Source: Acutalibacteraceae bacterium (GTDB taxonomy: Bacteria > Bacillota > Clostridia > Oscillospirales > Acutalibacteraceae). From it: a DNA stretch of 64,000 nt. Position 1 is the stretch's first letter. Each line of letters begins with the position of its first letter. A program made the translations under genes and the position numbers. The notes under the pieces are model-generated. The model searched no databases and was not told the origin of the DNA. It saw only the letters and a list, made by a program, of their open reading frames with translations. The stretch lies in assembly GCA_045533065.1 (NCBI GenBank), contig JAZSHC010000023.1, forward strand, positions 15,332-79,331, written 5' to 3'. Of the stretch, positions 12,478 to 47,966 are shown in pieces.

Positions 12478-12526
12478 GGACCTTACCTCCTTTTCTTCTG
12501 GTATTTTTATCTTTCTTTATAACCCA

Positions 12527-12561: not shown

Positions 12562-12603
12562 ACGGATTCTTAATTATAATTATAAAATGCTTTCAAATAA
12601 GGC

Positions 12604-14339: not shown

Positions 14340-14357
14340 AAATAATTACAATAAAAA

Positions 14358-14390
14358 AATACGGTGCTTTTGCAAGTACCGTATTTCTTA
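14358..14390. terminator. bidirectional terminator between convergent aroK and flavin reductase genes
   Basis: AAATACGGTGCTT / AAGTACCGTATTT stem-loop preceded by A7 and followed by a T-rich tail. Confidence 0.7.
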
Positions 14391-14420
14391 TTATGAAACA
14401 ACAAGGTCCGGGGCGGGTTC

Positions 14421-14918: not shown

Positions 14919-14975
14919 TATATCACCTCATATTTTTAATAAGGGAGCTGAAAACCTTCAACTCCCTTTTTGCTT

Positions 14976-16181: not shown

Positions 16182-17098
16182 TCACCTAAAAACTTAGCCT
16201 TGGCATCGTCAATCATTTTCTTTACATTTGCAGCAAGGGGCTTGCTTTCTTCCTTAAGGCCAACAAGAGGCTTTCTTGCATCACCGATATCGATGCCCTG
16301 AAGTCTGAGCACCTCTTTTGCAGCAGCATACATGTTACATTTGCAAGCACACATTGCATAAATAATTTCGTTGATAGCGTACTGAATTTCTCTTGCCTTT
16401 TCAAGGTTGCCTTCTTTTATAAGCTTATCACATTCAAGGAAAAGCTCAGGCATAACACCGTATGTACCGCCGATTCCGCCTTCTGCGCCGATTGCTCTGC
16501 CGGCAACAAACTGCTCGTCAGGGCCGTTGAAAACGATAATATCCTTACCGCCTTCAGCCTTGAACATCTGAATGTCCTGAGTGGGCATCGATGAATTCTT
16601 AACGCCTACAACACGGGGATTCTTAAGCATTTCACGAAGAAGAGGCATTGTAAGAGAAACACCTGCAAGCTGAGGAATATTGTAAATTACAAAATCTGTA
16701 TTGGGGGCTGCTGATGAAATATCATTCCAATACTGTGCGATTGCATCCTCGGGAAGTCTGAAATAAATGGGAGGGATTGAAGCAATAGCATCAACACCCA
16801 GGCTTTCAGCATGAGCTGCAAGCTCCATGGAATCAGCAGTGTTGTTGCAGGCAACATGAGCAATGATTGTCATTTTACCGCCAACAGCTTCCATAACGTT
16901 TTCAAGAATAAGCTTTCTTTCTTCCTTGCTCTGATAAATGCATTCACCTGATGAGCCGCAGACATAAAGTCCTTTTACTCCTTTATCAAGAAGCCAGCGT
17001 GCAAAAGCCTTTGTTCTTTCCGGTGATACACTGCCGTCATCTTCATAGCAGGCATAAAAAGCGGGAATAATACCCTGGTATTTTGTAAGGTCTTTCAT
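16178..17098 (-). CDS. nanA: N-acetylneuraminate lyase
   Basis: 306 aa of the DHDPS/NanA family: GLYVCGSSGE (E. coli GLYVGGSTGE), Schiff-base lysine context VVGVKNSS (E. coli GALKQTS), and GGIGGTYG. Confidence 0.85.
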   Translation of the reverse strand: MKDLTKYQGIIPAFYACYEDDGSVSPERTKAFARWLLDKGVKGLYVCGSSGECIYQSKEERKLILENVMEAVGGKMTIIAHVACNNTADSMELAAHAESLGVDAIASIPPIYFRLPEDAIAQYWNDISSAAPNTDFVIYNIPQLAGVSLTMPLLREMLKNPRVVGVKNSSMPTQDIQMFKAEGGKDIIVFNGPDEQFVAGRAIGAEGGIGGTYGVMPELFLECDKLIKEGNLEKAREIQYAINEIIYAMCACKCNMYAAAKEVLRLQGIDIGDARKPLVGLKEESKPLAANVKKMIDDAKAKFLGE

Positions 17099-17467: not shown

Positions 17468-17499
17468 AAAAACGCCCCCACTCCGTTGAGGAGTGGGGG
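17465..17499 (-). terminator. rho-independent terminator of the giant gene
   Basis: On the minus strand: CCCCCACTCC, loop TCAAC, GGAGTGGGGG, then CGTTTTTTTAT, 47 nt after the TAA at 17548..17546. Confidence 0.85.
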
Positions 17500-17545: not shown

Positions 17546-20500
17546 TTATTTAAAGATGCTGAAAATCTTTTCAAAGAATTCCTTAATCTTCTTAATAAGT
17601 CTCTGGAACCAGTTGAGAGATTCTTCTGCATCTTCAACTGCGTCTTCGTGGTCTTCATCAGAACCGATTGTGTCATCCCAGACACCGGTCAGATCTTCCA
17701 TAACCTTTGCGATACTGCCGTATGCGCAACCGGAGTTGTTACCGATGTTACCGAAGAGATCCTTCCAGATCTGCTGGATAACTGCAACGTCACCCATGAT
17801 AGCTGCATCGAGGGTAAGAGCCATACCAAGAGCTGAGAAGAGAGCTGATACGATGATATCAGGTACATCGTAAGCTGCTGTCTTGTTGAACAGCTCGTTA
17901 ACTGCGTAACGTACTGTTGCTTCTGCACCGCTTGCAAGTTCAAATGCATCTACAATCCACTTAACGAGAGCTTCTCTGTTATGAGGATCTTCGAACATTT
18001 CAAGAAGCCATGTGAATACAACTGTGAGTGTATCGCCCTTATCTGCTACGATGTTCTTCTGAGTTGTCTTGTGAGCAGCGCCGGGATTCTTAGCTGTGTA
18101 ATCTGCATACTGATCTGCACGCATTTCAACAGTGTAGGAGTTTGCAGGAAGTGAACGTGATGTTGATACTTCCTGAGCGTAGTCGCCGCCCTTAGCTGCA
18201 AGACCGTACCAATCGATCTGCGGGATTCTGAAGTCGTACTTAGCACCGAGAACTACGATACCGAGGTCGATGTTGTGTACAAGTTCTTCAAGCTTGAGGA
18301 AGCTTTCAAGGTTCACACCAAGTACGCTTGTAATTGTGGATACAAGTGTGTAAACCGGAGCAAGCAGATTCTTCACTGTGAGAAGGAGACCTTCGTTGGA
18401 GAAGTAATATGCAAGGTTCGGAAGGATGGTGAGAAGCTTGTTAACAGGATTATCAAGAAGTCCGTCTGCGAAGTATGCAATTCTGTTAAGGATGTAGCCG
18501 AGAAGCTGAGTCTCGTCTTCACTTACAAGCTGTGCATAAGCCTTGCTTGTGAGAACTTCGTCTGACTTGAGGCCGAAGGCTTCAAGAAGCGGGATAATAC
18601 CGTAATCGTAACCGTTACCGCCGCCGATCTGTACAATACCGAGCACGTCGAGAGCCTTGCCTTCACCGATAAGGAGAAGTTCAAGAAGTCCGTTGAGCGG
18701 TGTGAGTACGCCTGCAAGAGCTCTTGTGAAGTCATACAGGTTACCGTTAGCAACGTTCCAGTTAACGTTTGCTTCCTGGAATGATGTTACATCTGCCCAT
18801 GTTGCTTCGTCGCCCTTAAGAGCAACTGCCTTGTTGAGGTGAGCTGCAACGCCCTTGAGATAATCTCTGGTAGCAGCAAGCTCGCTCATCTTAGCTGCGA
18901 ATGCGGGAAGTGTAAGCGGAAGTTCGATTCCGAGGTCAAGACCTGCGATTGTTGAAAGGATGGGTCCTACTGAATCGCCGGCAAGAAGACCTACGAGTAA
19001 GTCAAGGAGCTGGTTAACAGTACCGTTGCTGATGTACTGAGCAAGAAGCTGTCTGAGTGAACCGAGGCCTGCTGCTTCAAGAATCTGCTTGATGAGCATG
19101 TCAAGGTTGTTTGCAATAACGTCAGCGTTCTGTTCAGTGAAGGTGAAGTAACTGTTGTAGTTAACACCTGTTACAGTAATGGGTCTGTTCTGGATCGGCT
19201 GGTATGAAAGCTTACCGCCGAGGATTTCAGAGATGATGTCAATGATCTTTGAGGGATCCTTAACGATTTCATCAATGATGTTCTCAATTTCAGGACCGAG
19301 TTCAACATTGAGAGCACCGAGAACTGCTTCAACATTTTCTTCAGTGAGAACTACCTTGAGAAGAGCTACAAATGTGTCAGCTGCGTCACCCTTGATTGTG
19401 CTGTAGGATTCAGCATTATAGATGTCGTACTTGTTGCTGAGATTTGTGCTTTCGAAGTCTACCTTACCGTCGTCCTTAACGTCAGCACCTGCCATAGCTG
19501 CAAGTTCAAGCCAGTTGAGGTTGAGCTTGATGCCGAGAGGCTTGCCGTTAACTTCGATGTTTGCAAGGAGATTTGTGAGAAGGTTAGCAATGTCTGTACC
19601 CTTAACAACAATGTGGATACCTGCTGCAACACCGGGATGTTCAACACCGAGGTAGGTGTTAAGAACCTTATAGTGTTCAGTTTCGTTGCCGATAGCACCA
19701 AGATCGATATTGATTGCGATCGGGAACAGCGGGTCAACCTTTTCAATCAGCTGGTTAACAGGAGCGATGAGGTTATCAACAATTGTGCCGATATCGTCAT
19801 TGCCGAGTACGTAGCAGAGATTTGCAAGAATCTTAGCAAGCCAGTTGATGGGAGCCTTAAGGATATCATTTTCGACTGTATCAACAAGCTGTGTAAGAAT
19901 CGGCTTAAGTGTGCTGCCGTAGCTGTTTTCAACAGCTGTCTTGTAAGCTTCCTGGCTCATTGCATCAATGCCGAGGAGTTCAAGAAGCGGGATAATAGCG
20001 TAGTTGTAACCCATACCACCCATGATGTTGATTTCATCAAGAGCACTGATTGCAAGGCCAACTTCCTTACCTGTGAACTTAGCGCGTTCCTGACCGCCCA
20101 TGAGAAGGATTGCAAGAATCGGATCAAGAGGAGCAGTAAGGTCTGCAACGAGGTTTACAAGGTCTGCAAGGCCTGTAATACCAAAGGTATAAGGTACATA
20201 TTCACGTTCAACAACATCTGCTGTTGCGGGATCATCAGCTTCCTTACTGTGAGCCATCCATACGTCTGCCCATGTTTCAGCGTCGCCGATGAATTCAGCA
20301 AGCTTACTGCCATGGTTGTTCAGAGCAAAGGCTGCAGGTGCGATGTTGAGGTCAAGGTTTGTGAATTCCTTCACATAACCGAGAACGTCATCGATTGTCT
20401 TTGAGGGAAGACCTGCAAGAAGCTCGGTGAGCATGCCCATAAGCATGTTAGCAATATCATCTGTGATGAAGCCGTTAACAAGCTCGTTGAGGCTTGAGTA

Positions 20501-23500
20501 CTTCTTACCGCCGATTTCTACAAGGCTGAGAATTGTCGGGATAAGTGCATCAAGATTCTTAACGATGTCATTGAAGTTTGCGTGTGTTTCAGCACTTGTT
20601 ACATCAATCTTATCAAGTACCGGCTGCTTATACGGTGTGTATTCAACAAGATACTTAGCAAGAAGTGATACAAGTACGTCAATAAGCTGTTCTTCCTTAC
20701 CTGCAAGACCTGTAACAATTGAGCCTACCTGGCTGTTCTTATCAAGGCCGAGCATGTTGCAAAGGATGTTGAGGAAGTTATCTGAAAGTACAGTTGAAAG
20801 GATGTACATAAGAGTATCGCCTGTATCAACGTGCCACTTAGTAACTTTGTCGCCGATATCATCAGGATCAACAAGACCTGTGGGCTGATCAACTTCGATT
20901 GCATACTTGGCAAGTTCTACGAAGAAGTCTTCGTCAAGAGCGGTGAGAACATGGATAACCTTATAGTATGTTGTTCTTGTAACAGCGTTACCTTCGCCGT
21001 CTACTACGGGCTTACCGTCTGCACCGATAACATCAAGTTCAACTTCTGCGTATTCATTTGTCTTATCTGCTTCAACCTGTTCCTTAGTATATTCCTTATA
21101 TTCGCCAACAATTACCTGACCGTTTGCATCGTATGCGGGCTCGAATACCTTAGCGCCGGGGATAATGCCGTTGATGAGTTCAACGAGAGCTTCACCCTTT
21201 TCGCCTGCGATATTGAGGATACCGCTGATGGTAAGCATGTCATTCTTTGTCAGTGACTTAAGAAGTGCGTCAAGCTCTGCTCTGGAGATTGTTCCGCCGA
21301 GAGCGTCAACAAGTGAAAGTACAGGTGATACAAGGTTGTTGATGAGTACTTCTACACCGCCGTTTGCAATGAAGAAGCTGAGGTTACCGAGGAGAACAAG
21401 GATTGTGTTGAAGGGAGCTTCGCAAAGTTCGTCAACAAGTACGAATACATACTCGATTGTCTGTGCGAGAGCGTCAACAGCAGTCATGTTTTCATCAGCT
21501 GCTACCCATGTTGCACCCATTTCTTCAAGACCAAGTGCCTTGAACAGGTACCAGATAGCATTTGTATAACCGTCGTTACCCTTGAGCATGATGCCTTCAA
21601 CGCCGAGACCCTGAGCAATTTCAAGGTTACCGCCGCGGAGAAGGAATGCAAGTACGCTTTCAAGAGGCTTGAGAAGGTCATAGATTGCTCCAAGGAATGC
21701 ATCCTTGTTGTTTACGCCTGTGAATACTGCATCGATTGTTCCGTCTTCTGCCTTATGCTGGCCGAGAACGTCTGCCCATGTAACTGCACCGTCAGTGCCT
21801 GTGCCTGTTACATTCACATATTCGATAAGCTGAGCATTGCCTGTTGCAGCCGCAAATTCTGTGGGAGCAAGGTTAATGCCGAGGATATCGCCGAGTGTGC
21901 CTACAAGGCTTTCGGAGATTGATTCACCGAGAAGCTTGATGAGCATATCTGTGATAGTCTTCATCATGTCATCTGTGAAGAGCATGTCTGTAAGAAGAGT
22001 ATCAACGATGTGCTTGAGAACAGCCTTTCCTTCGGGAACGTTTTCAGCTGCCTTCATGATTGTGTCAAGAAGTGAGCCTTCTTCAACATCTGCACCTGCG
22101 ATAAGCGGGAGAATCTTGGGAACAGCCTTACCGATGAGTCTGTCAAATGCAGCAATTGCTGTGTCAACATTTTCAACATCGTTGAAGTCAGCCTTGCCGA
22201 GGAACTTGAAGATCATTTCGAGAACAGTGATTTCATATTCGCCGGTGAGGATGAGAACGAGGGTACCAACAAGGTTAATGATAGCACCGCGGTCGCTGAG
22301 AATGTCGTTGAGGAGACCTTCGATTGTGGGATCAAGGTTTGCATCGCCGAGAAGACCGAGTACAAGATCCTTGATAACCTTAACGTTTTCTTCTGTAAGA
22401 ATTGCGTTAAGAAGAGTTACAAGTGTATCAGCTGCATCGCCGGAGATGTTCTTGTAAGGATCGTTACCTGTACCCTTAACAGTTGTATCGGCATAGCCGT
22501 AAACCATTGCGGATTCAGTGTAGATGATGTTACCGTTTTCATCTCTCTTAGCCATTGCTGCTGCAAGTTCAAGCCAATCAAGATCAAGAGTGAGACCGAG
22601 CTTCTTACCGCCGATTTCAAGACCTGAAAGGAGTGAACCGATGAGGCTTGAAAGAGCATCTGCTGACAGGTCAATGTTAACGCCAGCCTTGAGACCCTTT
22701 GAGCCGCCGAGATCGTAATCGAATGCAAACTTACCTTCGCCGTCAACTGCAACGCTTACACCGATGGGATATACCTCGCTTACAGCATATACAAGTTCGT
22801 TGATGGGAGCGATAAGGTTAGCTGCGATTGTGTTGATGCCTTCTGAACCGATGAAGTAGAAGAGGTTTGCAACAAGTCCGAGAACTTCTGTGATAGGAGC
22901 ATCAAGGATTGTGCCAACTCTGCCAACGATAGCATCAAGGATATACTTGAGTGATGAGCCTTCATACTTTTCGTCGATTTCTCTGTCATAGGTTGCCTGG
23001 TCAACTGCGTCAACACCGAGTGCTTCAAGAAGCGGGATGATTGCATAGTTGTAACCGTAGCCGCCGTTGATACGGATATCAGCACGTCTTACTTCGTTCT
23101 GATCTTCAAGAGCGATGATCTGCTTACCGCTGAGAAGGATTTCAAATACAACATCAAGCGGGAGAAGGAGATCTGCTGCGAAGTTCACAACGTCAGCGAG
23201 TGTTTCCATATTCCAGTCGTATGCTACGTGAACCTTTGTTTCCTTAACCATAACAGGTGTAAGAACTACATCAGTTTCTGTACCGTTAAGGTTAATCTTT
23301 GTTGTAACTGTGCCGTCGTCAGCAACTGTTACATCTTCGTCAGCAAAGTGGAACTTCAATGTTGCGCCACCGAGTTTTGCTGAGTAAACCTTCTTGCCGT
23401 CAGCAGTATCCTGAACCATGGAAGCTGAAAGCTCATACTTCTTAGCATTTTCGCCTTCGCCTACTGTGTACATTGTACCGTCAAGGTCAGCGTCAGCAAG

Positions 23501-26500
23501 GTATACTGTTACGGTTTCGTCCTTAGAGCCTTCAACAGCAGGATCTGCGGGAACAACATAGGTATATACATACTTCATGTTGTTTTCAGCAACTTCTGCC
23601 CATGTCTTAGCATCGCCGATGAAGTTCTTGAGTTCTGAACCGAATGCATCGTTTGCGAATGCCTGCGGGTTAATATCAAGCTGAAGGTTTGTAAGTTCCT
23701 TAACGTAATCAAGGATTGCGTCAATGTCGAGACCTGCAAGAACAGGTACGAGAAGGTTCATAAGAAGGTTACCAAGGTCAGCGCCTGCAACAAGACCGTC
23801 GATCATTGAAGCAAGATCTCCGTCTGTGCCGAGGAGGCCGAGGATGGAAACAAGAAGTCCGTCAAGTGCAGTGATTGCACCGGGAAGTGCTTCTTCAACC
23901 TTTTCATCATTCGGGTCAAAGGCACTGTAGTCTGCAGCATCACCGTCAAGGTCTGTCTGCGGAACCTTATTGTAAGTAATTGTGTAATTTTCAAGGAGCA
24001 TCATGATCACGTCGACAAGTGCCATTTCCTTGTTTGCAAGTGAGGTAAGAATGGAGACAAGCATGTCGTCCGGTTTTGCATCGGGAGCAATCTTACCAAC
24101 AAGAACCTGAAGGAATGTGTCATCAAGAACCTTGTCGAGGATGAACATGAGAGTTTCGCCTGCGTCAACCTTCCATGTGATTGCATCAGTATTGCTGATT
24201 ACGGCATCACCGTCGAAGTCGGCTTCGTCTTCTGTAGGATCAACTGCCTTAATTGCATACTGTGAAAGTTCAATGAAGAAGGTGTCTTCAAGTGCGTCGA
24301 TTGTGTCAACAACTTCGCCCTTATCATTCTTAACCTGGAAGCCGCCGAGGAGATCGTTAACAAGAGCAACGAGGTTTGCACCGCCGTTGTTACCGATTTC
24401 GATGATATCTGTAAGGCTCATACCGATGAAGCCTTCAAGGATACCGTCGATCTGGTTCATGCTGATAACGGGTTCAAGGAGCTTGAGGATTGAGAATATG
24501 GGAGCTGCGATATTTCTGATGATTGGCTCAAGATTATCGTTTGCAACAAGATAGCTGAGACCTGCAACAAGCTCAAGAACTGTCTTGAGAGGTGCATTAG
24601 CAATCTTATCAACAAGGCCGTTTGTACCAATGAGGCCTGCAACAAGCTTGTCGAGAGCTTCAGTGGTGTTGTCGGCTGTCTCGAGTTCAACACCGAGTGC
24701 CTTAAACAGCGGGATAAGAGCTGTGTTATAAGCATTACCGCCGGGAAGTTTGATTGACTTGTCAAGGAGTTCAAGTTTACCGCCGCAGAAGATGAAGTCA
24801 AGAACAGGATTGAGAGGAACGAGAAGTGAAAGTACACCCTGGATGAATGTATCCTTATCGTTTACGCCCCAGTCGTATTCGTTAGCAACACCGTCTGTGC
24901 TGTTGTTTGCCCATACTTCTGACCATGTAGCTGCATCGCCTACATAATTTACAAGTGCAACATTACCGGTTGCCTTTGCAAATGCCTTAGGTGCAAGGTC
25001 AATGCCGAGGAGATCCTTAAGAGTACCAACAAGGTCTGATGTAAGGAAGCCTGCGATTGCCTTAACAAGCATTTCCATGAGTGAAGCATAGTTATCTGCT
25101 GTGAATGCAAGTTCAACAAGAAGGTTGTCAACCATATCCTTAAGGTCAACAGCGCCTGTTGCTGCATTGACAAGAGTCTTCATGATGCCGGTTGCGGAAT
25201 CAGCATCGATGAACATTGTAAGAATTGAAGGTACTTCACGTGCAATGATAGCGTCGAGTCTGTCAATTGCGTTGTTAAGCTTCACGCCGTTTTCAGCATT
25301 TTCGTCTGCGAAGTAGGTGAGAGCTCTGAATACCTTGAATGCTGTTTCGAGGGTTTCGATATCGTAAGTACCGCTGAGAAGAAGTACTACTGCTGCAAGA
25401 AGTTCCTGGATACCGTTAGGATCGTAGAGAACGTCTTCGATAATACCAACAACGTTGATTTCATCGTTTGCAACACCGTTTTCGTCAACACCGTCCATAC
25501 CGCTGAAGTCAACACCTGCAAGGAGGCTTTCAACAAGCTTTGCAATTTCATATGTGTTGTTTTCAGTGAGGATTGTCTTGATGAGAGTTGTGAAGGTGTC
25601 TGCAGGATCACCCTTGATGTTGTACCACTGAGCTTCTTCACCGTCAGCTGTTACCTGAGCTGTGGGAACCTTAATGAGCACTTCAATGGGAGCTGCACCT
25701 TCAACAAGAGTTACAACGTGGTCAACAATTTCTGTACCGTTGTTAATCTTAGTTGTGAGTGTACCGTCTTCGGCCTTTGTAACTGCATCATCTGCAAGAT
25801 ACATGTTGATGCCTAAGCTATCTACAGTGTAGAGATATCTGGTTTCTGTTGCTGCCATCTTGGAAGCAATGTCAAGCCAGTCAAGCTCAAGAGCAAGGTT
25901 GAGCTTTTCACCGTTGATTTCAAGACCGTCAAGAAGACCTGTGATGAGGTTGATGAGGTCATCGGGGTTAACGTTTACAGAAATACCTGCAGGAACCTTA
26001 ATGCCGTTCTTATCGGTTTCTGAGCCGAGAGCTGTTCTGAGTACGGAACCGCCTTCAACGCCGAGTTCTGAAAGGTCAATCTGGATACCGATGTGGTATA
26101 CAGCTGAAATCTTTTCAATAAGAACGTTTGCGAATGCAAGAAGGTTTTCAGCGATATTGTTGATACCGTCTGAGCCTACGAAGTAGAAGAGATTTGCAAG
26201 AAGTGAAAGGAGAGTCTGAACAGGTGTTACAAGAAGTTCGTCTTCTACCTTTGAGATGATTGCATCAAGGATGTAGTTGAGGTGACCCTTTGTCTTGGCC
26301 TGTTCAATGTATTCAGCTTCTGAGATAGCTTCGATGCCGAGAGCTTCCATAAGAGGAATAATTGCATAGTTGTAGCCGCGACCACCCTTGATTCTGATAT
26401 CTTCACGGTTGCCTTCATCATCATAGCTTTCAAGAACGATAAGCTGTTCTTCTGTGAGAAGGAGACCGAGAACCTGATCAAGCGGGAAGAGAAGGTCAGA

Positions 26501-29500
26501 GATGAGAGCAACAACACCGTCGAAGGATGCGTGTTCACCTGTGAGACCGAGATCCCAGTTGAAGTCTGAGTGGAATACATATTCGTGTTCAAGAACAGGA
26601 GTAAGTTCAACAACTGTTTCTGTACCGTTTATGTTCATCTTAGTTGTAACTGCGCCGTCGTCAGCAACTGTTACATCTGCATCAGCAAAGTGGAGAATAA
26701 GGTCCACGCCGCCAACCTTAGCGGTATAAATCTTCTTACCGTCTTCGGCTGTCTTTGTTACTGTTGCGTTTTCGAGTGTATATGTCTTAGCGTCTTCGCC
26801 TTCACCGATAGTGATTTCAGTACCGGCAAGGTTAGATTCTGCTGAGTAGTATGTGCCGTATTCAGCCTTAGCATCTGCTGTAGCTGCCTTGGTTTCATAC
26901 TTGTAAACATATCTCATGTAGTTAGCTTCAACTTCAGCCCATGTCTTTGCTGAGCCGATGTATTCGCTGAGCTTGGAACCGAATTCGCCCTTCTTGAATG
27001 CCTGAGGATCAAGTGAAATTTCAACATTTGTTACTTCCTTAACGATGTCAATGATTTCACCGATGTCAAGGTCAGCAAGTACGGGAACAAGGAGGTTCAT
27101 GAGAAGGTTGCCGATGTCAAGACCTTCAACAAGTTCACCGAGGAGACTCTGGAGTGTGTCAACATCAAGACCTACAAGACCGATTACTGCACCGATGATG
27201 GGATCAAGTGCTGCGAGAGCCTGGTTAAGGTTTTCGTCGGTCATGGGAGCGATGTGCTCAACAGGAGTCTTATCGATTTCACCGCGTGAGTGTTCGCTGT
27301 ACTGGATTGTGTAGTCAGTAAGGAGAGTTACAAGAATGTCAACAATGTTATCCTGCTTACCTGCAAGGCTTACAATGATCTGACCTACTGTGCCTTCCTT
27401 CTGGCCGATAAGTTCACAGAGAACCTTAAGGAAGTTATCTGTGCATACTGTTGAAAGTACATACATGAGAGCGTCAGCTCTGTCAATTGTCCAGTCAACC
27501 ACATACTTGTGTTCGGGCTGAGTTTCGTAACCGAATTCGCCCTCTGCGATGAGACCTACATCTACGTCGCTGTCTGTGTCAACAACAATTGCATGCTTAG
27601 CAATCTGTACAAAGAAGTCAGCGGGAAGAAGCTTAGCCTTGATTGTGTTACCTGTTGCGTCAACGATTTCGAATTCACCGATAAGGTCGTTGAGCATTGT
27701 AACAAGACCTGAGCCGTCTGTGCCTGCAATGTTCTTAATATCGTCGATATCCATCTTGATGAACTTGTCAAGAAGTGCGTTGATTGAGCTCATGGGAGCG
27801 ATTCTGTCAACAACAGTGAGAAGTCCGAAGATGGGAGCAAGGATACCGTCAACTGCCTCTGCAACACCGTTGGATGCAAGGAAGTATGAGAGACCTGCAA
27901 CGATGTCGATAATTGACTGAAGCGGATTTGCTGCAATCTTATCAACAAGTGCGAAGATACCGTCAAGAAGTTCTTCAACAACTACGATAGCATTCTTCTG
28001 AAGTCTGGGATCAAGTACGCTGTTAGGCTTGATATCAACGCCGAGAGCCTTAACGAGAGGAACGAGTACGTTATCGTATGCGTTGCCGCCCTTAAGAGCT
28101 ACGCCGTCAACAAGAAGAGTGATGTCAGCGCCTCTGAACAACCAGTCGAGGATGGGACCGAAGGGAGCAATGATTTCAAGGATAAGGTCTACAAAGAGTT
28201 CCTTAGCATTTTCATCACCGGTGATACCCCAGTAATTTTCCATTACTACCTTTGTCTTAGCCTGTTCAACTTCCTTACCGTCCTTAGTAACCTTTTCAGT
28301 TACAAGAGTTACGGTCTGTTCAGTACCGTTTTCGTCGGTATACTTGGTTTCTTTATCTGTGTCAAGGTACACTTCTACCTTCTTATCCTCGGCGCCTTCT
28401 TCAGTTGCCGGAACAGTGTAGGTATATACATATTTCATGTTAGCATTTGCAACGTCTGCCCATGTGAGACCTGCGTCCTTATCAGCGGGCTGGATTGTTG
28501 CAAGGTATGCCTTAATCTTGCTGTCTGTGATTCCTGCATCTGCAATTTCCTGTGCGAAGCCTGCGGGATCAAGCTGGATACCGAGGATTTCGTTAACAAG
28601 GTTGCTGATGAGATCGAATGTCTTAGCGTCCATACCACCGAGGAGACCTACGATGAGACCGAGAAGCATATTGATGATGTCATCAGTGAAGATGTTTTCG
28701 TTGAGGAACCAGTTGAGCAATGAGCCGATGCTGTCAGTTGCGCCGGAAGCAGCGATGTCAGCAATGAGTGCGGGCATGTTGTCCATATCACCAAGGATAT
28801 CGAGAACAGGAGCAATAGCATTGTTGAGAACTGCGTCGAGCTTGTTGATTGCCTGAGTTACGGTTGTCTTGTTAACAACGTCCTTCTTAGCATAGTCATA
28901 ATCTGTCTTGCCGATAAGGTCGAAGAGAACCTTAGCCTGTGAAACAACATAGTCACTTGCAAGAAGCTTGATTATAGCATCAACAACTGCAGCGGGATTT
29001 TCGATAGCTGTGTTAACGATGTCCTTAACCTCAGGAAGATCCTTAAGAAGGTCATCAAGGTTAACCTTGAGCATACCGAGAATATCGTTGATTGTATCTG
29101 TTGTGAGGAGCATATCGAACAGAGTGATGAGCATATCAGCAGTGTCTATTTCGATATTTGTTCCCCATGTTCCGAGAAGGATATCCCAATCGGGATCTAC
29201 AAGTGAAGCAACGGGCTTGATTGTGCCGTCTTCATTTGTTACAGCTGCGCCTGCAGCAAGGTCTGCAAAGCGGAGCTCAAGGTGCTTAAGGTCGGGAGCA
29301 AACTTATTGAGAGCCTTAACGATAAGATCTTCAAGTGTTGTTGCATCAAGGTCAATTGTAAGACCTACGTTTGCACCGTTAGCTGCAACATCGTCACCGA
29401 TGTAGAAGCTGAAGATTTCTGCGCCTTCTTCGAAGAGTGCGTTAAGTTCAATAATGATAGCTACGGGAAGAACGTCTTCGATAGCTCTGATGATTTCACT

Positions 29501-35500: not shown

Positions 35501-38500
35501 TACGAAGCGGTCATAACCGTCGCCGGCGGAGATTGTAATACCGTCAAGGATTACGAGATCGCCATTTTCAAGGAACAGGAGCTGGAATACGGGTGCAAGC
35601 GGAGTGAGGATGTCACCAAGAAGTGCGAGAGCGTCGTCGTATGTCTTCACGCCGAAGCTGTCGGTACCTGTGAGCTTCACTTCGTACTTGTATTCGTAAA
35701 CAACTTTATTGTCTTCGGTCTTAACTACATAAGTGTCCTTAAGGGGTTCTTCAACAACCTCTTCACCGTCAGCGCCGGTTGTTTTTGCCGGTGTGCCGCC
35801 GGTTACATAGTATGTACCGAATTCGTTTGTAATTGTTGTTGCAGATGATTTGTATACGGGAATCTTGTTGCCGTCTTTATCTTCTGCATATACAGGGATG
35901 GGTTTATTTACTGAATCTGTGTTGTAAAGGTATGTGCCGTCATTTGCTGCAGCTTCATCCTTAACTTCCACATCATCTTCTGCATTGTCAGGTGTGTTGT
36001 TAACATCAACCTTGTATGTTACCTTATCGGTTTCAGCGTTGTATATGATCTTAGTCTTGTATTCTTCGTAAGCTTCTGCCCATGTGTCGCAGTCTTCAAA
36101 GACCTTAGCCACTGCGGGTGATGACTTCTTGAAGTAATCAAGAGTAAGGTTGATACCGCCGTTAACGCCGCCTGTAAGCTCGTAAACCATTGTAAGGATA
36201 TCGTCAAGCTTACCTGCACCGAAGAGGTTAACAAGAAGTGTGAAGATTGTTGTTGCAAGACCGTTCTTCATTTCGCCGGTTGTTTCATCAAGGGTGTCAA
36301 CAAAGAGTGACTTGATGAGGTTTTCAACAATATCTTCAAGTGAATCGCCTGAAAGGTCGAGTTCAAGATTTACACCGAAGGTGGGAAGAAGCTCACCAAC
36401 AAGAGGAAGCACGGCTGCGATGAGCTCGTCAAGCTTCTTGGGAAGTTCTTCAAGTTCATCCTTGTCAAGACCTGTTGTGCTCCAATAGGAAACTGTATCT
36501 TCGCCAACCTGAACATTCTGATCACTGGGAAGAACTGTGCCCATACCTGTGGGAGTCTGCACTCTTTCAGGTGCATATTCTACATCGTACCATGAGAGCA
36601 GGTCGATGAGAAGTCTTTCAAGAGCTTCACCGTCCATGAATACACCGTAAAGGAGTACGGGAAGGAGATAGTCTGTGTCAAGAACCTTATCTTCAGCGGG
36701 CTTCATATCTCTGAGAGCTTCGTCTGAGAAGTCGAAGTCACCGATAAGACCGGCAATGAGGTCACGTACACTTTCCTGGAAGAGGAGTGTGTCAAGAACT
36801 GCAAGAAGAACAGTTTCACGGTCTACATAGTAGTCAGTTACCTTTTCTGCAGTTACAACAGTGCTGAGGTTAATGTCAGTGCTGTTATATTCGGGAACTC
36901 TGATGGTAACGTAATCCTTACCGTCAGCATTCTTGAGACCTTCATCGTTATACCATGCACAGGATGCAAAAGTTGTAAACAGACGGTCGGAGATAATTTC
37001 GGAAAGAACAAGCTTCTTACCGTCGCCCATGTCAATGCTTACGCTCTCAATGATATCCCAGATGATATCCATGAATGTGAGCTTGCTTGTGTCGATACCG
37101 CTGTCAGTATCAAGAATATCGTTTTCATCAGCTGCAAGAGCGATGCCTGCATTTGCGTTAGCTTCTGCAGCTTCGTCAATCTGCTGTTCAACATATTCAG
37201 TTGCAGTGTCAACTGCGGGATCCTTCATACCTGCTGCAAGGCCCTGAAGAAGACCCTTGATGAGTCCCATGATGTCAAGATCGTAAACGTTCTTGATCAT
37301 GTCTGTAAGAGCAGTTACAGGTGAAAGAAGGTTGCCCACGATGGTATCAATACCGTTGCTTTCAAGGAATCTTGAAAGGTAGGGAAGGAGTGTTGCGAGA
37401 GTTGAGATAGGTCTGTCGCACAGTGAATCAACGAGTGCAAATACTGCATCGAGGAGTGACTGAAGGATAACCTTCTTCTCTCCGGGATATGCAACGTCAA
37501 TGCCGAGGTCGTCTGTTGTAGTGTAACCGTAAACAGCTGCTTCATATTCTGCCTGGCTTGCGTAATAGTTTGTAAGGTACTTACTGCCGTCGGCCTTTTC
37601 AAATACGGGTGCACCGAGAGCGTTGATAATGGGAAGAAGAACGCCGGAGTAACCGTCAAAGCCACGGATGTTGATTTCTTCGTAAATTGAAAGCTTTTCG
37701 CCTGTAAGGAATACTTCAAGAATGAGTGAAAGAGGATCAACAATAGCCCAAAGAACATCTACGAAGTTCTGGCGTGACTGTGTTCTTGCTGATTCAATTT
37801 CAGCTTCAGTTGCATTTTCTGCAACTTCAACAACGATGTTCCATTCAGCGTCAATCTTAACAGCTGTCTTCTGGCTGGTTGTATCGTCAACCATAACAGC
37901 AGTAAGAGTGAACTTCTGCTCTTCAGCATTTTCGTCTGAAGCGGGAATTACATACTCAGTCTTGCCTGCATCCTTGTGGAAGTAGGATGTTCTGTCATCA
38001 TCTTCCTTAGCAGCGTCAGATGCATAGTAGAAGTATTCATATTCGCCGTCTGCATTCTGAGCCTGCTTCTGGTTGTAAACAGGAATAAGAGTTACTTCCT
38101 TATCGTCTGCTTCGTCTTCTGTGCCCTTATAGTCAACAGTTGTGGTTGTTGCTGTTGCGGACTTATCGAAGTAAGAAGCGTAAACAGGTTCACCCTTATC
38201 GTTTGTAGCAGGTTCACCGTCTTCGTCAAGGGTCTGATACTTGTATTCATACTGCTTGTTAGCTTCAGCAATTTCAGCCCAAGTCATTGCAACGGTTTCG
38301 CCGTCAACTTCCTTGTTGATAAGAGAAGCGAGTACGGGATGGTTGTCTGCAAAGTTAGCGGGTGAAATGTCAATACCTGCAGCACTCTTGAGAATGTCTG
38401 TTACGATACCGATAATGTCACCGGTGCCTTCACTTGCAAGAAGGCCTACAAGCATACCGAGAAGGTTGTTGATAAGATCATCTGTGAAGAGAAGGTCTTC

Positions 38501-41500
38501 AAGAAGGCCGTTAACAGCTGTTTTGAGGTTGATGTCGTCTTCTTCTGTGAAGATACCGTAGAAGAGACCGCCTTCCTTAACAAGATCCTTCTTGAACAGG
38601 TTGAGAACTGTACCAACAAGCTTGTCAAGGTTATCAATTGCATAAGCTGTCTTCACACGTGAAATTTCAGAACCTGCATAGGTGCCTGCCTGAATTTCGG
38701 GAAGAATATCCTGATATGTCTTACCGTATTCATCGTAGAAGTCATAGTGATATTCTTCGATGGGGATAAGAGCTACGCTGTCAGCATCTGCAACGGTGTA
38801 CTCTGTGAAGAGTGCAACGATAAGGTCAACGATGCTGTCAGGGCTTGTAAATACGTTTGTAAGAAGTTCGTCGAGTAACTCTGCATCTGAGCCGTTTTCA
38901 TCTGTAAGATCATAGCCGAGAAGCGCACCGAGTACTTCCTTCAATGTTGTATTTTCGAAGATGAAGTCAAGGATAAACATGAACATGTCTTCCTTGGCTA
39001 CTGAAAGCTGACCGTTATATGCGTCAATCTTTACGTAGTTTTCGTAGGCTGCGGGGATATTGTGTGTTGTTCCGTTGGCATCTGTGTATGAATCACCGAA
39101 GGGATCACCGAGAGCTGCAATTGACTTGAGCCAATTTGTAGCAGCTGTAGCACGCATTGTTCTTGCCTGTTCAAGAACTTCTTCGTCGTCCGGATTTGCG
39201 TTGATCATAGCCCATGCCTGATTTTCAACATCACCGTCTATAAAGTATGTCAATGTACGTTCGAACTTTTCTTCGCTCTTCATGAGTGAAGTAAGGTCAA
39301 TCTTAATGTTTGCAACAAATGAGATAAGTGCCTGTGAGAAGTTGATACCTGTTGATTCAGCAGGCTGCTGAGTTGCAATAATCTTGCCGTTTTCATCGTA
39401 TGTGATTACGTCATAAACCTTGTTTTCGTCTTCATCAAGATAGTACTTGAAAATATCCTGGAAGGTGGTCCATGTGTTTGTACCAAGCATATCGATGATA
39501 CCTGCACCGAGGTCGTTAACATCAATGCAAAGAACGGGACCGAGTCTGTCAGTAAGAGCTGTAAGGAAGCTGAGAAGGTTTGAAAGAATCTCAGTTGCAC
39601 CGTCACTTGTGATAAAGTATGCAAGTGTGGGAAGTGCAGCCATAAGAGTTGAAATCGGGTATGTTGCAAGAATTTCAACGAAGTAAAGGATGTAGTTAAC
39701 AATAACCTTAAGGAAGATTTCCATGTTATAACCCTTGCTTGCATCGAATGTAATATCGCCTGCCTGCTCAGCAGCGAAGGACCATGCTGTTACATTACCC
39801 TGTGCATCAACCCATGTACCGAGTGAACGTCTCATACCGTCATTACCCTTAACAAGGTTGCCGGGGATGAGGTTTACGGTTGAACCGTAGATTTCCTTAC
39901 GTTCATTGTTGAGGGCTTCAAGCATTGTGATTTCTTTGCCGTCAACAACGATGGGTTTGCCTTCTGCATCTGTTGCTTTGGTTGTGTTGAGTGTGCCGAG
40001 GATAGCATCAAGACCGAAGCCTCTGAGAAGCGGAAGCATTGTGTCTTCATAGCCGTCCTGGCCTTCAATATTAAGTGTGTCAAAGAGCTTAACTGCTTTA
40101 TTTGAGTCTGCGCCGAAGAAGAGAGCTTCAAGAATGTCTTCAAGTCCGCCTATAACTTCCCAAAGGCAAGTGATAAAGTAGCTTACCTTGCCATAGAAGT
40201 GATCCTGGTAACCCTTGGATGCAACATCATCAAAGTTCCATGACCATGCGCCGGCAATTTTTTCTGTAGTATAGACTGCCTTAAGTGTATACTTTGTCCA
40301 GATTTCGTTACCGTTTTCGTCCTTTTTAATGATCTTGTCGCCGTTTTCGTCAACCTTTACGTTGCCGTTTTCGTCAACTTCGTAAACAGGATCTGCAAAG
40401 GTTTCAAGATTCTGATATGCGCTGAGATATTCAGCATCTTCACCGTCCAGAGTCTTATAAGTGTAAACGTACTTGCCGTCCTTAGTTTCCTGAACGTAGG
40501 TGCTTGCAAGGAGCTTCATTGTGGGCTTGTCAAGATCATCTTCTGTAATCTTGATTGTCTTGTCAGCATCCTCGTATGTGGGGTTGCCCTTAGCATCAAG
40601 AACATCCTTCTGAGCGTAAGCATACTTAGGCTGACCGTCAACCATTACAACGTTACCGTTCTTGTCATATTCATAAGCATGGTAACCGTGTGCAGCAGAG
40701 ATGTCTGCCCATGTGATGTCACGCTTTTCACCGTCAACAGCAATCTTTCCGTTTTCGTCAACAGCAAGGCCGTAGCCCATATACTGACGAAGACCGCTGT
40801 CATCTGCTGCATTTCTATATACTGTAGCAGCAGTAATGTCTATACCTGCTTCACTTACGATGGGAAGGAAGTCGCCGATTGAACCACCGAAGAGACCAAC
40901 AAGCAGGTTAACAATTGTTGTCATTGTTTCATCCTTGAATGCAAGGTTTTCAACAAGCTTTGTGAGAACTTCATAGAGTGTTGCACCGTCTGTGCCACCT
41001 TCAATACCAAGGCTTGAAAGGTCAAGGATACCCTGTGAAGTGAGAATTCCGATAACATCGGGAAGAGCCTTCTTAAGAACTGCGTCGAAGCTGTCAAGTG
41101 TGTCGGCAACTTCGGCCTTTGTGAAGAGAACATTACCGTTTTCGTCCTTAGTGATTGTTGACCAATCGTAAGGAACGTGCTCGATACCGTACTTCTGCAT
41201 GATATTCTCAATAACCTCGCCGGTTTCAGCGTCGGTTACCTTATCGTTCTTGTATCCTGCAATGCCCATCTTAGCATAGAACATCTTCATGCCCTTCTTA
41301 GGAACATAGTCTGTAAGAAGGTCAACAAGAATACCAACAATAATATCAGCACCGGTACCGTTATAATTACCGTTATCAAGTTCAACACGCTGTCTTGCGC
41401 GGTTTGAAATACCTTCAACAATTGAACGTACCTTTGCCCAGTCTGCAGTCATTTCATCTGTAACTTCTTCGCCCTCTTCAGCCTTTGCGTACCAGTTCAT

Positions 41501-44500
41501 GAACATGTCAGAGAACATGATGATAAGGTCGTCTGTCATGATGGAACGTACAATTGTGATAAGAGCCTGTGAGGGTGAGCCTACAAAGTAGGTGAATTTA
41601 CCGTTTTCGGCACCTGTTACATTTGAATTGCGCAGCTCGCTCTTCTTTGAACCGTAAGTTGCAAGTGCACCGAAGTCAATGAAGTTTGTTACAATGATTT
41701 CTTCACCTGTGTCAAGCTCTGAGCCTGCAACCATATCTGAAATCATCTTGTTAAGAGTGTTTTCAAGATCAAGGAATTCGTCAAGAAGAGCTGCGATATC
41801 AAGCTCGAGTGCTCTTGAAAGAACAGGGTCAATAATGTTAAGAAGCTCAAGAACAGGTGAGATAAGGTTCTTAACTGCCTGTGCAAGGTTATTTGTTTTT
41901 AAGGGAATATTGTTAACATCTACTTCACCTGTCTCATATGAATAGAGAAGGTATGCAATGTTGGGAAGCTTTGAGAGAAGTGCAGTAAGCGGACTTTCGA
42001 GAAGACCGAGCTCACCTGATGCATCGTCACCAACAAGAACTGCTCTGAGAGCTGCAAAGAGAGGTGCAAGAGGTGATTCAACAGTGTTCCAGTTTCTGCC
42101 TGTCTTATTAGCTTCGGGATTTGTGCTGCCGTGAACATAAGTGAGATAATCATTAGCACTCATTGAAGCAGTGTATGTTTTACCGTTCTTGGTTTCAACA
42201 ACAACATCACCGTAACCGAGTGACTCAATAAGCATTGTTATTGATGTCTGATAACCCGGATGTCCTTCAAGTGTAAGCTCGTCAAGAAGAGTGATATCCT
42301 GACCGCTGAACAGGAAGGAAAGAAGGGGATTAAGGGGAGTGAGAAGTGTTTCAAGTGCGTCAAAGAAGGTATCAACCTTAACTTCTGCACTTTCATTGCC
42401 GCTGAGCATGTAGAACCAGTTGTAGCCGTCTGCAGGAGCAGTTACATGTGCCCATGTCATATCTTCAGCTTTAAGTGTGGGCTCATTTACCTTTGCCTTA
42501 TTGTAGCAATCATTAAGCCAACCGGTAATAGCAGTGTTACCTGCTGCTTCCGCTGCGTTATAGAAACCGATAGGTCTGATATCAATATCAAAGTCAGCAA
42601 GAGCGGGAAGAAGGTTTGCAACAATACCGCTGCCGAGGATACCGCCGAGAAGACCTGTATCCATAACAGGAATTTTGTCACCGTTTTCGTCAAGAACATA
42701 GTTGCCGTCTGCATCCTTCTGGTATGCAGGAACCTTTGTGCCGTCCTCAAGAGTTTCTTCCTTCTGCTCGCCTGTACCAACAAGAAGGGTTACAAGAAGC
42801 TGCATAACATCGTTTGATGTGATAACATCTGCAACAACATCTGCAAGGGTATCATTCTCACCGATATTTTCAAGAGGTTCGAGGATTCCTGCCATGTTCT
42901 CGGGAAGTATACCTTCAAGCATGGGAAGGAGCATGGGAACGAGCATGGGAATAAGATCCATTATAAGGTCGTCAATGTTCTTAATTGCTCTGTCAGCCTT
43001 GCCGATCATTGTTTCACGTGTAGCCTGAACTTCACCTGATTCAGGATCAGCAGTAATTGCACCGGCTGCTGTTACCTTTTCACCTGCATCATTGATATAG
43101 GTTCCGTCAGGAATTTCTGCAAGTGATTCTTCGAGGTATTTACCGAGAACAAACTGACCGTCTTCACCGAAATCGGTCCATGTCATTGTTCCGTCAGCAG
43201 CTGTGTCTTTGTAATCGTAAACTGTGGGGATATATTCGTTAAGAAGAGTTACAAGGATAGCAACAACTGTGTCTGCCTGACCGTCGATGATGGGCAGAAT
43301 TGTGTCAATAATTGAGCCTGAGCCACCCAGCAAGCCGCCAAGAAGAGGCATAAGCTGAATGATAACACCGTCATTCATAAGCCAACGGAAGAGTGTCAGA
43401 AGTGTGTCACCTGTGTCGATGTTGAGGTGGTAGTTTGTCCATGAAGTCTGACAACCTGTCATCGGGGTCTCAGCAGGAGTACCCATTGCCATAAGACGGT
43501 TTACGTGAATATCAAGTGCTATTGAGCCCTTGTCACCCTTCCACTCAAGCATGTCAAGCAGACCTTCGCCTGCTGCTCCGAAGAGAGTCTGAGTGAGAAG
43601 ACCGAGATTTGTATAGTAGTAGCCGTTATCGTCACAGTAAAGTTCCTGTCTTACGGATGTATACTGTCCGTAGGGAAGTCCGTTGGGATATGTCTCAGCG
43701 AGCTTGACAGTATCAACATTGTACTGGATTACATTTCCGTCCTTATTGTAAAGGTCATAAATCTTGTTTCCGTCCTCATCAAGGACATCCTTCATGAGTG
43801 CCTTTACATCAGCGCCGGGTCTTGTCTTTGTTCTTGATGCGCCAAGAAGACCGCTGAGAACACCGTTGATACCGTTTGAAAGGTCAAGACCAAGGTCTGT
43901 AAGAAGAGGAAGAATAATATCTGAAAGGCTGATGGGAATGTTAGCAATACCAAGAACGTTAATGTTGATACCAACATTACTGAGCTTGGGCATAAGCTGA
44001 TTGTACTCAAGAGCACAAAGAAGGTTGGGAAGAATTTCAAGGATTGATGATACGGGAGCTGTGAACAGGTCGTTGTTGATCCAGTTGAAAAGAGGATCAA
44101 AGATAGCAACCCAAACATCTCTACCGTAGTTAGAGGGGAATTCTGTATCATTAACCTTGTAGCTGCTGCTCATATTAAGAAGTGACTTGATAGTGTCTGC
44201 ACTTCTGTAACCGTGAGGATTGCTTGAGCTGTATTCCTCAATACCGAGAAGTCTGTAAAGAGGAAGGAAGAGAGCGTCGTAAAGAGCGTCACCTGTGGAT
44301 GAAAGCTTAAGGTTAACATTGATTGTACCGATAGCACCGGTAAGTTCAATTTCTCTACCTGTAACAAGAGTATTAAGGGGGTTGATAAGACCGATTGTTG
44401 CAACTGTAAGTGAATCGTAGAAGGTCTTTTCGTTAGTAATGTTCCAAGCCTTCTTTGAATCCCAGTTTGACCAGTCTACAGGACTCAGATCTGAACGGCC

Positions 44501-47548: not shown

Positions 47549-47668
47549 AAATTTACCTCCTTAAATGAAAGAATATGTATATTACAAATAGGATTCCCTA
47601 TAATAATACCGAGGCTTTTACCCAAAAAAGGGTGCAAAATGCCCATAGAGACACCTATAACTATAGGT

Positions 47669-47697
47669 AGTATATCATTTAAAAACAAGTTTTTCAA
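47669..47697 (-). promoter_or_regulatory. sigma-A promoter (extended -10) of the giant gene
   Basis: The minus strand reads TTGAAA (47697..47692), 17 nt, TGaTATACT (-10 at 47674..47669). An A/T-tract region lies upstream and the leader is about 115 nt. Confidence 0.65.
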
Positions 47698-47893: not shown

Positions 47894-47922
47894 AAAAAAA
47901 GCACCCTCCCGAAGGAGAGTGC
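47894..47922 (-). terminator. rho-independent terminator of the 2,386-aa protein gene
   Basis: On the minus strand: GCACTCTCC, loop TTCG, GGAGGGTGC, then T7, 45 nt after the stop at 47967. The single imperfect pair is a G-U wobble on the minus strand but a C-A mismatch on the plus strand, which supports the minus orientation. Confidence 0.85.
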
Positions 47923-47966
47923 TTTGATTTTGTTATAAATCAGCTTTTACTTTTCACTTATCGGAC

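Follow-up and report, generated by a model that had tools for sequence, protein, structure and literature searches.

This investigation concerns a 64-kb window (64,000 nucleotides; contig JAZSHC010000023.1 of GenBank assembly GCA_045533065.1, positions 15,332 to 79,331) from the genome of an Acutalibacteraceae bacterium, and within it a single giant gene located at 17546..47548 on the minus strand (all coordinates below are those of the window unless a locus is named). In the list of open reading frames (ORFs) this gene comprises 10,000 codons plus a stop and begins with ATG; its 30-kb frame is uninterrupted and encodes a protein of exactly 10,000 amino acids (aa). The protein is built from an export signal, an N-terminal head, 15 large and divergent modules and a short tail that ends in an amphipathic helix. 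At a probability of roughly one half, we interpret it as a real, Sec-exported giant protein of the cell envelope, a stalk that is made of a new domain and whose C-terminus tethers it to the membrane.

The modules were originally recognized from a recurring GGxGY...PLxxALG motif described in an earlier note on this DNA. Translation places all 15 copies in frame at the codons that the note had named, from residue 1102 to residue 9659, and the first copy (STGDALYDALFLPLYRLLG) is degenerate, as had been observed. Only three copies match the strict consensus and copy 7 is divergent; a relaxed regular expression finds 13 matches in the giant versus none in 500 residue shuffles. The motifs are embedded in collinear homologous modules, as a self-BLASTP comparison of 680-aa windows taken around the motifs aligned these collinearly with most of the other motif regions over 300-740 aa at 21-42% identity. 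An alignment of the 15 units with MAFFT also recovered the elements that had been reported around the motif, namely a second helix with an invariant Pro, a Gly-rich helix and TWA[DE], the last of these in modules 2-15.

A hidden Markov model (HMM) of the module covers aa 831-9902 of the giant continuously in 15 modules, with E-values of 1e-21 to 1e-152. This revises the limits of the array at both ends. The first 1,000 or so residues had been called non-repetitive, whereas the non-module N-terminal part is in fact about 830 aa long, and the last 340 or so residues, described in the same way, consist mostly of the remainder of module 15, leaving a distinct tail of only about 100 aa. MAFFT hinted that the last 130 aa might hold part of a 16th module, but this was rejected because the module HMM is silent there even at E 100. 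The natural start of the module, about 210 aa upstream of GGxGY at an AIxxLDxLI helix, was located with hhalign and with P0003, a complete 1,082-aa homologue in which a signal peptide is followed by two modules, a transmembrane helix and a Lys-rich tail. More specifically, hhalign matched the giant modules to a 101-sequence alignment of the short family with a probability of 99.9 and an E-value of 3.8e-37, and the match begins where the second module of the short family begins and stops shortly ahead of the transmembrane helix. From the AIxxLDxLI helix the module continues with a tDDxxNxLxxLLVGLLGG helix, GIxLxPxxF, TWADV, a beta-rich insert that varies in length from 0 to 170 aa, an FxxxLxxLLxPLxxxLxxLLxG helix and the motif itself (IxIxGGxGYxxaIxPLxEALG), which is followed by PxxxLLxLLPNLxYFxxSxG...NLxAP, aDTLxxxL and LVxLLxxYxVxY.

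All modules lie on the minus strand. Module 1 (43016..45058, aa 831-1511; HMM match 831-1510, E 7e-85) carries the degenerate motif copy and is followed by module 2 (41129..43015, aa 1512-2140), which was delimited by HMM matches and anchors, and by module 3 (38669..41128, aa 2141-2960), which at 820 aa is the longest and contains a beta-rich insert. Modules 4 (36473..38668, aa 2961-3692), 5 (34607..36472, aa 3693-4314), 6 (32435..34606, aa 4315-5038), 7 (30650..32434, aa 5039-5633), 8 (28880..30649, aa 5634-6223), 9 (27248..28879, aa 6224-6767) and 10 (25298..27247, aa 6768-7417) then lead to module 11 (23906..25297, aa 7418-7881), which is without the beta insert and was chosen for structure prediction. 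The array is completed by modules 12 (22187..23905, aa 7882-8454), 13 (20594..22186, aa 8455-8985), 14 (19145..20593, aa 8986-9468) and 15 (17843..19144, aa 9469-9902), the last being the shortest and covered by two HMM matches (9470-9592 and 9594-9902).

The modules are 15-48% identical to one another at the protein level, and the pattern of this identity suggests how the array was formed. Among modules 6-15, pairwise identities define a class A, consisting of modules 8, 10, 12, 14 and, less clearly, 15, with up to 48% identity (modules 10 and 12), and a class B, consisting of modules 9, 11 and 13 together with the B-like module 6, with 30-37% identity. The two classes alternate along modules 8-14. 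This interleaving indicates that the array of the giant probably expanded by duplication of a double unit, A plus B, of about 1,100 aa.

The spacings between motifs are exactly those listed in the earlier note, and they fall off significantly (Spearman rho -0.93, p about 1e-6). Each of the five segments between anchors becomes shorter in the direction of the C-terminus (rho -0.47 to -0.61). The beta-rich insert that separates TWADV from GGxGY contributes most, its length varying between 76 and 243 aa. The taper is also a property of the family: in 73 members with an N-terminal Met, more than 500 aa of non-module sequence before the first core match and at least five core matches, rho is negative in 93% (mean -0.67) and the C-proximal module spacings converge on about 400-440 aa. 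Instead of modules that shrink toward the C-terminus, the taper is better viewed as a core of about 400 aa on which loop and beta-rich insertions pile up toward the presumably distal N-terminal end.

Structure prediction with AlphaFold2 (AF2) is consistent with a unit that is very large (400-820 aa) and mostly helical, far exceeding the repeats of 80-170 aa in known giant adhesins, and in this the earlier note was borne out. Long forms of the family are scarce in the word-indexed protein database (three matches with profile A1 and two fragments with A2), whereas the short subfamily of P0003 is well represented; alignments for modelling were therefore built from internal modules or from short forms. 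The model of module 11, for which the 15 modules of the giant served as the alignment, has a mean predicted local distance difference test score (pLDDT) of 66.8 and a predicted template modelling score (pTM) of 0.62, and contains about 21 helices and a few short strands. P0003, modelled with 101 homologues, reaches a mean pLDDT of 78.7, about 90 over both modules, and a pTM of 0.66, with the same order of elements as module 11. In this model GxDGY lies at the end of a beta-hairpin (strands 171-175 and 178-181 in one module, 564-566 and 570-572 in the other), after which the chain enters the IPLLEALG helix; another hairpin lies close to the end of each module, the connector between modules is non-helical yet ordered (pLDDT above 90), and a transmembrane helix occupies residues 841-864. 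The ordered connector and the pTM of 0.66 are at most indirect evidence for the rod or fibre that the earlier note had proposed. The module is accordingly predicted to be a discrete, mostly alpha-helical domain with a core of about 400 aa, in which GGxGY would form the tip of a beta-hairpin before the IIPLLEALG helix.

No described family was matched by the module in Pfam, NCBIfam, PHROGs, PADLOC or the PDB sequences; as the modules are also collinear homologues, neither of the two outcomes that the earlier note had named as refuting it has come about. Across all 10,000 aa of the giant, Pfam and NCBIfam return no family at E<=0.1, PHROGs and PADLOC return no match, and searches of the PDB sequences with module profiles A1 and A4 were empty. 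P0003 likewise has no match in Pfam or NCBIfam, and six more family members have no Pfam match above the curated cut-off, with three weak sub-threshold matches falling in two of the six. Foldseek searches with the models of module 11 and P0003 found nothing significant in the PDB (best E 0.33 and 0.38, template modelling scores of at most 0.15) or in BFVD (best E 0.029, score 0.06). Two possible origins were rejected on similar grounds. A plasmid, phage or defence origin was discarded because tblastn against plasmid and phage records, PHROGs and PADLOC were all empty; a phage tape-measure or tail protein was discarded because of the absence of PHROGs matches, the insignificant BFVD results and the lack of any tblastn match to phages. 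The module represents a new domain family whose fold is confidently predicted as all-alpha and which is without detectable relatives.

The family is large. An exhaustive hmmsearch of 1.84 billion representatives (cut-off E<=1e-3) identified 652 clusters, 373 of them at E<=1e-30. Most of the proteins measure 2,000-7,700 aa and match the profile in 5-18 stretches; among the best 150 of the 652 there is none as long as the giant, which is the largest member encountered. A scan of the GTDB species genomes with a six-sequence core alignment yielded 177 matches at 66 loci, all in metagenome-assembled genomes (MAGs) of uncultured Clostridia from gut or rumen, mostly labelled Acutalibacteraceae, the others Ruminococcus, Oscillospiraceae and 'Faecalibacterium'. 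The MAGs derive from goat, sheep, deer, cattle, buffalo and human hosts. In the MAG RGIG4739, family matches occur on two contigs, JAFUQS010000044 (loci L003/L064) and JAFUQS010000066 (L007), with identities of 79% and 70%, and some genomes probably encode more than one giant paralogue. A 3.9-kb ENA contig, P0001, holds a fragmentary ortholog of modules 6-8 that ends abruptly in ACT-domain sequence (PF22468); in all likelihood the contig is chimeric or the gene call is an artefact, and database fragments of this family need to be treated with care.

The 153 family proteins follow a common pattern of fixed polarity: a Lys-rich signal peptide, a divergent but homologous head of 700-1,100 aa, the modules, whose number ranges from 2 to 15 when the two-module short forms and the giant are included, and one of two endings. 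In 95 of the 153 the ending is a terminal helix of the form [IV]xD[DE][DE]G[VL]APNG[FL]IxFFQKIIx[FW]F[KQ]KIIx[FW]FKNLF, equivalent to three FFxKIIx heptads, and in 13 it is a transmembrane helix followed by KKKK, which implies an N-out, C-in orientation for those members. The giant fits this pattern, having module blocks, a signal peptide, a homologous head and a C-terminal helix of the FFxKIIx type.

This C-terminal helix is the element on which the proposed membrane tether depends. The tail of the giant (17618..17842, minus strand, aa 9903-9977) consists of a hydrophobic stretch and an acidic linker; the module HMM fails to match it even with the cut-off raised to E 100, and it is conserved in the orthologous fragments P0057 and P0091. 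It is followed by the amphipathic helix LNWFQRLIKKIKEFFEKIFSIFK (17549..17617, minus strand, aa 9978-10000), a putative membrane anchor whose hydrophobic moment of 0.73 exceeds the 99th percentile of all 23-mers of the giant (0.49) and which the family HMM for the C-terminal helix recognizes at E 5e-12. Because this type of helix is interchanged in the family with a transmembrane helix and poly-Lys, we infer that it tethers the C-terminus to the membrane. A sortase anchor (LP.TG) is absent across the giant, and Pfam detects no SLH, CWB2, LysM, SH3b or similar wall-binding domain in it.

Export is indicated by the N-terminus. The signal peptide MEVGKKVLSCVLAIIMIVSSVSVCFGVLGA (47459..47548, minus strand, aa 1-30, with a putative cleavage site) is the sole transmembrane-like hydrophobic segment of the giant, there being no C-terminal transmembrane helix. 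Its KKxLSxxLxxxM pattern, unusually constant across the family, is kept in at least 88% of family N-termini and is probably a lineage-typical Sec signal and not a special motif. A signal of the same type also begins the neighbouring 2,386-aa protein and the secreted 435-aa product of ORF 3732-5039, which we take, from reading by eye, to be lipase-like. A lipoprotein signal was considered and rejected, since the Cys of SVCF falls under the 60% conservation cut-off applied and the residue at -1 is Val.

The head (45059..47458, minus strand, aa 31-830) lies outside the module array, the HMM starting at aa 831. A jackhmmer search from the head of another member aligns to aa 1-741 of the giant and reaches 99 of the 153 family proteins, and the head of the giant has no relative in Pfam or the PDB. 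When the N-terminus of the giant itself was used to scan metagenomes, no match was obtained. It contains a lineage-specific Cys-rich insertion, GHIWGDTTCGGDSCTMLC...DADGDG (45992..46207, minus strand, aa ~448-519), which the head alignments to P0010, P0007 and P0020 skip. The insertion matches weakly (E 0.036) the Cys4 zinc site of PDB 3lmc, an archaemetzincin-like peptidase, and the DADGDG that comes after it is calcium-site-like. A metalloprotease head was rejected as the match to 3lmc is weak and covers the insertion only, HExxH is absent (QSMGH is found instead) and the insertion is unique to the lineage.

Candidate expression signals flank the gene itself. Six nucleotides before the ATG, a ribosome-binding site AAGGAGGT can be read directly off the sequence (47555..47562, minus strand), and a consensus scan found a promoter-like site, TTGAAA-17-TATACT with TG upstream (47669..47697, minus strand; a consensus match only), and upstream of this site a terminator-like hairpin (47898-47925) marks the end of the preceding gene. 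An intrinsic-terminator-like hairpin with a 10-bp stem, 8 GC pairs and a T run is located 47 nucleotides past the stop codon (17475..17499, minus strand). These signals are canonical, with a strong ribosome-binding site, a promoter-like site and a strong terminator-like hairpin at the 3' end. Supporting the gene at the level of evolution, the Acutalibacteraceae MAG locus L002 is about 89% identical to it in DNA, and its frame remains open across 6.3 kb with a ratio of nonsynonymous to synonymous substitution rates (dN/dS) of 0.17 over 2,054 orthologous codons. Because that frame stays open and dN/dS is this low, the giant gene is real and under purifying selection.

By analogy with other giant surface proteins, we infer an extended stalk that displays the head (Embp/Ebh, PMC7587433; the Apilactobacillus Giants, PMC12863079). 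Following Sec export, the amphipathic helix would keep the C-terminal end at the outside of the cytoplasmic membrane, a task that would fall to the true transmembrane helix and poly-Lys tail in the paralogues that possess them. The compact, undecorated C-proximal modules would traverse the cell wall, and the N-distal modules, which are larger and decorated, would reach with the head tens of nanometres past it, assuming about 5 nm per module. The taper would then mirror bare proximal modules inside the wall and decorated ones beyond it, and the reach would be set by the number of modules (2 to 15). The stalk may present the head to particles, host material or other cells, or may serve as a spacer or coat. 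Several observations weigh against this interpretation. No domain for binding or catalysis can be recognized in the head, nor are any polar residues conserved there; a grand average of hydropathy (GRAVY) of +0.07 is unusually hydrophobic for an exposed fibre; the C-terminal connector in the AF2 model of the single module 11 is of low confidence; the terminal helix could instead serve in secretion, sorting or oligomerization; and the sole conserved genomic link of the family, the occurrence of short forms beside a MacB-like transporter, suggests a different role.

This last link deserves particular attention. In all four loci of short forms examined (31-100% identity), the two-module, membrane-anchored protein is directly followed by a gene for an ABC_tran+FtsX fusion of 915-926 aa whose best NCBIfam match is MacB, and a TetR or MarR regulator usually precedes the pair. 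The three-gene units of regulator, short form and MacB-like protein, which are conserved in gut Clostridia, are located at L001 846-7505, L068 8001-13341, L069 7365-13810 and L071 5348-11162. The short forms, of 850-1,100 aa, make up about 100 clusters, and the few that carry a name are called 'hypothetical protein'. The unit appears to contain an undescribed MacB partner and to offer the most tractable route to the function of the module. Alternatively to a stalk, then, the module could be an extracytoplasmic adaptor, a duct or a carrier of hydrophobic cargo in MacB-type (type VII ABC) mechanotransmission, and the giant a paralogue extended into a wall-spanning conduit that works with a transporter in trans. 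The strongly hydrophobic module helices, the positive GRAVY of the giant and the clear homology between the modules of the giant and those of the short forms are compatible with such a role. However, the giant has neither the C-terminal transmembrane helix and Lys-rich tail of P0003 nor an adjacent ABC_tran+FtsX gene; neither LSGGQ nor an ABC Walker signature occurs in the window, except for a single P-loop (Walker A) encoded by ORF 13842-14339, whose 165-aa product we take, from reading by eye, to be a shikimate kinase; a conserved genomic partner of the long forms was sought and rejected, since no flanking ORFs are shared between the window and the six other contexts (L073, L080, L081, L083, L085 and L087); the giant has promoter-like and terminator-like sites of its own; and 15 modules are far longer than any wall is thick. 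The conduit is the main rival to the stalk, but we consider it rather unlikely.

It is similarly unlikely that the giant is released, or assembles by itself, as a coat, matrix or S-layer-like protein whose terminal helix acts in oligomerization or serves as a signal for export or sorting and is then removed. Such a role would suit a protein that is both hydrophobic and highly acidic (Asp and Glu 16% versus Lys and Arg 7%), in which ...DDEG[VL]APNG... before the helix is conserved in the manner of a processing signature and which has an unrelated surface protein with a similar terminal helix as its neighbour. The exchange of the helix for a transmembrane segment and poly-Lys in paralogues nevertheless favours retention at the membrane, and Pfam finds no SLH, wall-binding or S-layer domain. 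In addition, in a scan of JGI metagenomes every sufficiently long ORF that ends in an APNG-type motif encodes a protein of the module family, so that no general sorting system is evident.

It is very improbable that the giant is a pore-forming or otherwise membrane-active, toxin-like protein in which hydrophobic hairpins are hidden in an amphipathic bundle, as in colicins or Cry proteins. Forty hydrophobic peaks other than the signal peptide (Kyte-Doolittle above 1.6) are spread across the modules, and many membrane transporters occur among the insignificant top matches of Foldseek, but Asp, Glu and Pro break the hydrophobic helices, no toxin, defence or phage library gives a match, there is no immunity gene or secretion partner nearby, and fifteen tandem copies with a membrane-anchor end fit this role poorly. 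An artefact, whether a repeat assembly chimera or a non-functional open frame, can for practical purposes be dismissed: the source is probably a MAG, repeats are prone to mis-assembly and the exact length of 10,000 aa looks odd, but the modules are too divergent (15-48% identical) to be collapsed or misjoined, the independent ortholog is open over 6.3 kb at a dN/dS of 0.17, hundreds of related giants have the same ordered architecture and the expression signals are canonical.

A more speculative reading regards the module as a genuinely new fold and its proteins as a new class of envelope-spanning 'rulers' of Gram-positive gut anaerobes, with the APNG sequence and three-heptad aromatic helix as a new kind of outer-leaflet anchor or sorting signal, ancestry of the module as the extracytoplasmic partner of MacB-type mechanotransmission transporters and a taper that arises from passage of the proximal modules through the peptidoglycan. 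We consider this set of ideas improbable; the chance that the mechanism will prove to be categorically new is likewise small, but real; were the ruler and its MacB ancestry correct, the giants would be force-coupled or cargo-conducting surface fibres and not passive adhesins. Oscillospirales such as the Acutalibacteraceae are abundant and mostly uncultured in the human and ruminant gut, where their surface contacts with fibre, mucus, phages and neighbouring cells are largely obscure, and a 30-kb gene amounts, by a rough estimate, to something like 1% of a genome measuring a few megabases. The present analysis defines a family, hundreds strong and without annotation in the libraries searched, in terms of module boundaries, a profile, a head and a terminal anchor, and it also supplies a structural model of high confidence without a known fold match and a quantitative rule for the taper. 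The small homologue of about 850-1,100 aa with its MacB-like partner is a tractable entry to the biochemistry of the module, and the terminal helix is a candidate for a new C-terminal membrane-anchoring signal of exported proteins.

The neighbouring genes provide further context. Upstream of the giant, the gene at 47967-55127 (minus strand) encodes a secreted protein of 2,386 aa with many YxFxGW-type repeats and about six Cys-rich CxxxG...CxxCG repeats; its library matches are weak and limited to CarboxypepD_reg (aa 2254-2329) and one Listeria-Bacteroides repeat. It ends in a Cys-flanked amphipathic helix (CSCSCHRDNFWGAFFRFFQKIIKLFTGKPSCC, moment 0.62), and like endings are found in P0040, P0060 and P0072, which suggests that a terminal anchor may be common to unrelated surface proteins of these bacteria. 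A third exported protein of the window that ends in an amphipathic helix is the 127-aa product of ORF 1829-2212 (plus strand), which has a signal peptide and the C-terminal sequence ILKVFKGFIDKIIAVAAKIGEFL (moment 0.51). The genes that flank the giant presumably have housekeeping functions, to judge from their translations read by eye, and so do not suggest a phage context. Downstream of it we take, by eye, 16178-17098 to encode an N-acetylneuraminate lyase or other DapA-family enzyme, 14976-16181 an N-acylglucosamine 2-epimerase and, past the epimerase, 10330-13608 a TAXI-TRAP transporter pair; if these identities are correct, the region 12604-17098 (minus strand) is possibly a cluster for the utilization of sialic acid. 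Rfam and tRNA scans of the window found nothing.

Comparison with known systems places these features in perspective. MacB- and FtsX-type ABC transporters have accessory partners, which include MacA-type adaptors and coiled-coil proteins such as EnvC and PcsB. The short forms resemble these in being membrane-anchored, helical, extracytoplasmic and encoded beside a MacB-like gene; however, the module family has no sequence or fold similarity to HlyD/MFP proteins or to coiled-coil hydrolase activators, and the giant has no transporter as a neighbour. Terminal targeting elements are known both as amphipathic helices of the MinD and FtsA type and as sorting signals (LPXTG, PEP-CTERM and GlyGly-CTERM). 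The module family shares with them a short basic and aromatic amphipathic end, an APNG just upstream and the exchange with a transmembrane helix and basic tail. The differences are that the helix of the giant belongs to an exported protein and would act on the outer leaflet, that it has 23 residues and three FFxKIIx heptads, and that LPXTG, a transmembrane helix and a known sorting enzyme are absent. Giant size and tens of tandem modules that extend a terminal ligand-binding region also characterize the beta-sandwich adhesins (SiiE, RTX adhesins of the LapA/MpIBP type and Bap), but these consist of Ig-like or cadherin-like beta repeats of 80-120 aa and use type I secretion or sortase, whereas the modules are helical in the AF2 models and the giant is without their domains in Pfam and NCBIfam.

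Closer likenesses exist among Gram-positive bacteria. Giant Clostridia proteins described in the literature are of the RCC1, Listeria-Bacteroides-repeat or S-layer/MBG types, none of which belongs to the module family. The libraries and literature searched contain no description of the module or its size, of the taper rule, of the terminal helix or of the short paralogues linked to MacB. Embp/Ebh of staphylococci have an export signal, helical repeats that form a rod and a C-terminal transmembrane region (PMC7587433). They resemble the giant in their length of about 10,000 aa, their Gram-positive host, their N-terminal export signal and their body of tandem alpha-helical repeats, and their membrane-spanning C-terminus is matched by the transmembrane variant of the paralogues. 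In contrast, their repeats measure 125-170 aa (FIVAR/GA, or F and FG) versus 400-820 aa in the giant, in which Pfam has no matches; YSIRK, DUF1542 and the C-terminal transmembrane region are all absent from the giant, which instead has the KKxLSxxL signal and an amphipathic end; and the giant occurs in uncultured gut Oscillospirales. Giant1-3 of Apilactobacillus kunkeei are predicted to be elongated and combine a signal peptide, an N-terminal head formed by a beta-solenoid, an alpha-helical repeat stalk of up to 0.2 um, with 13 repeats of 366 aa in one of the proteins, and C-terminal wall-binding domains (PMC12863079). The giant of the window resembles them in its Sec signal peptide, distinct head, long and imperfect alpha-helical repeats and C-terminal attachment element. 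Their stalk, however, is a continuous array of parallel helices, whereas the giant consists of discrete domains of about 400 aa with hairpins; their C-terminus carries DUF5776 or SH3b-like wall-binding domains, none of which Pfam detects in the giant; and their composition is Asn- and Ala-rich versus rich in Leu, Ala and Asp here. Thus, the combination of a head, a body of helical repeats and a C-terminal anchor in a giant surface protein of Gram-positive bacteria is an already known design.

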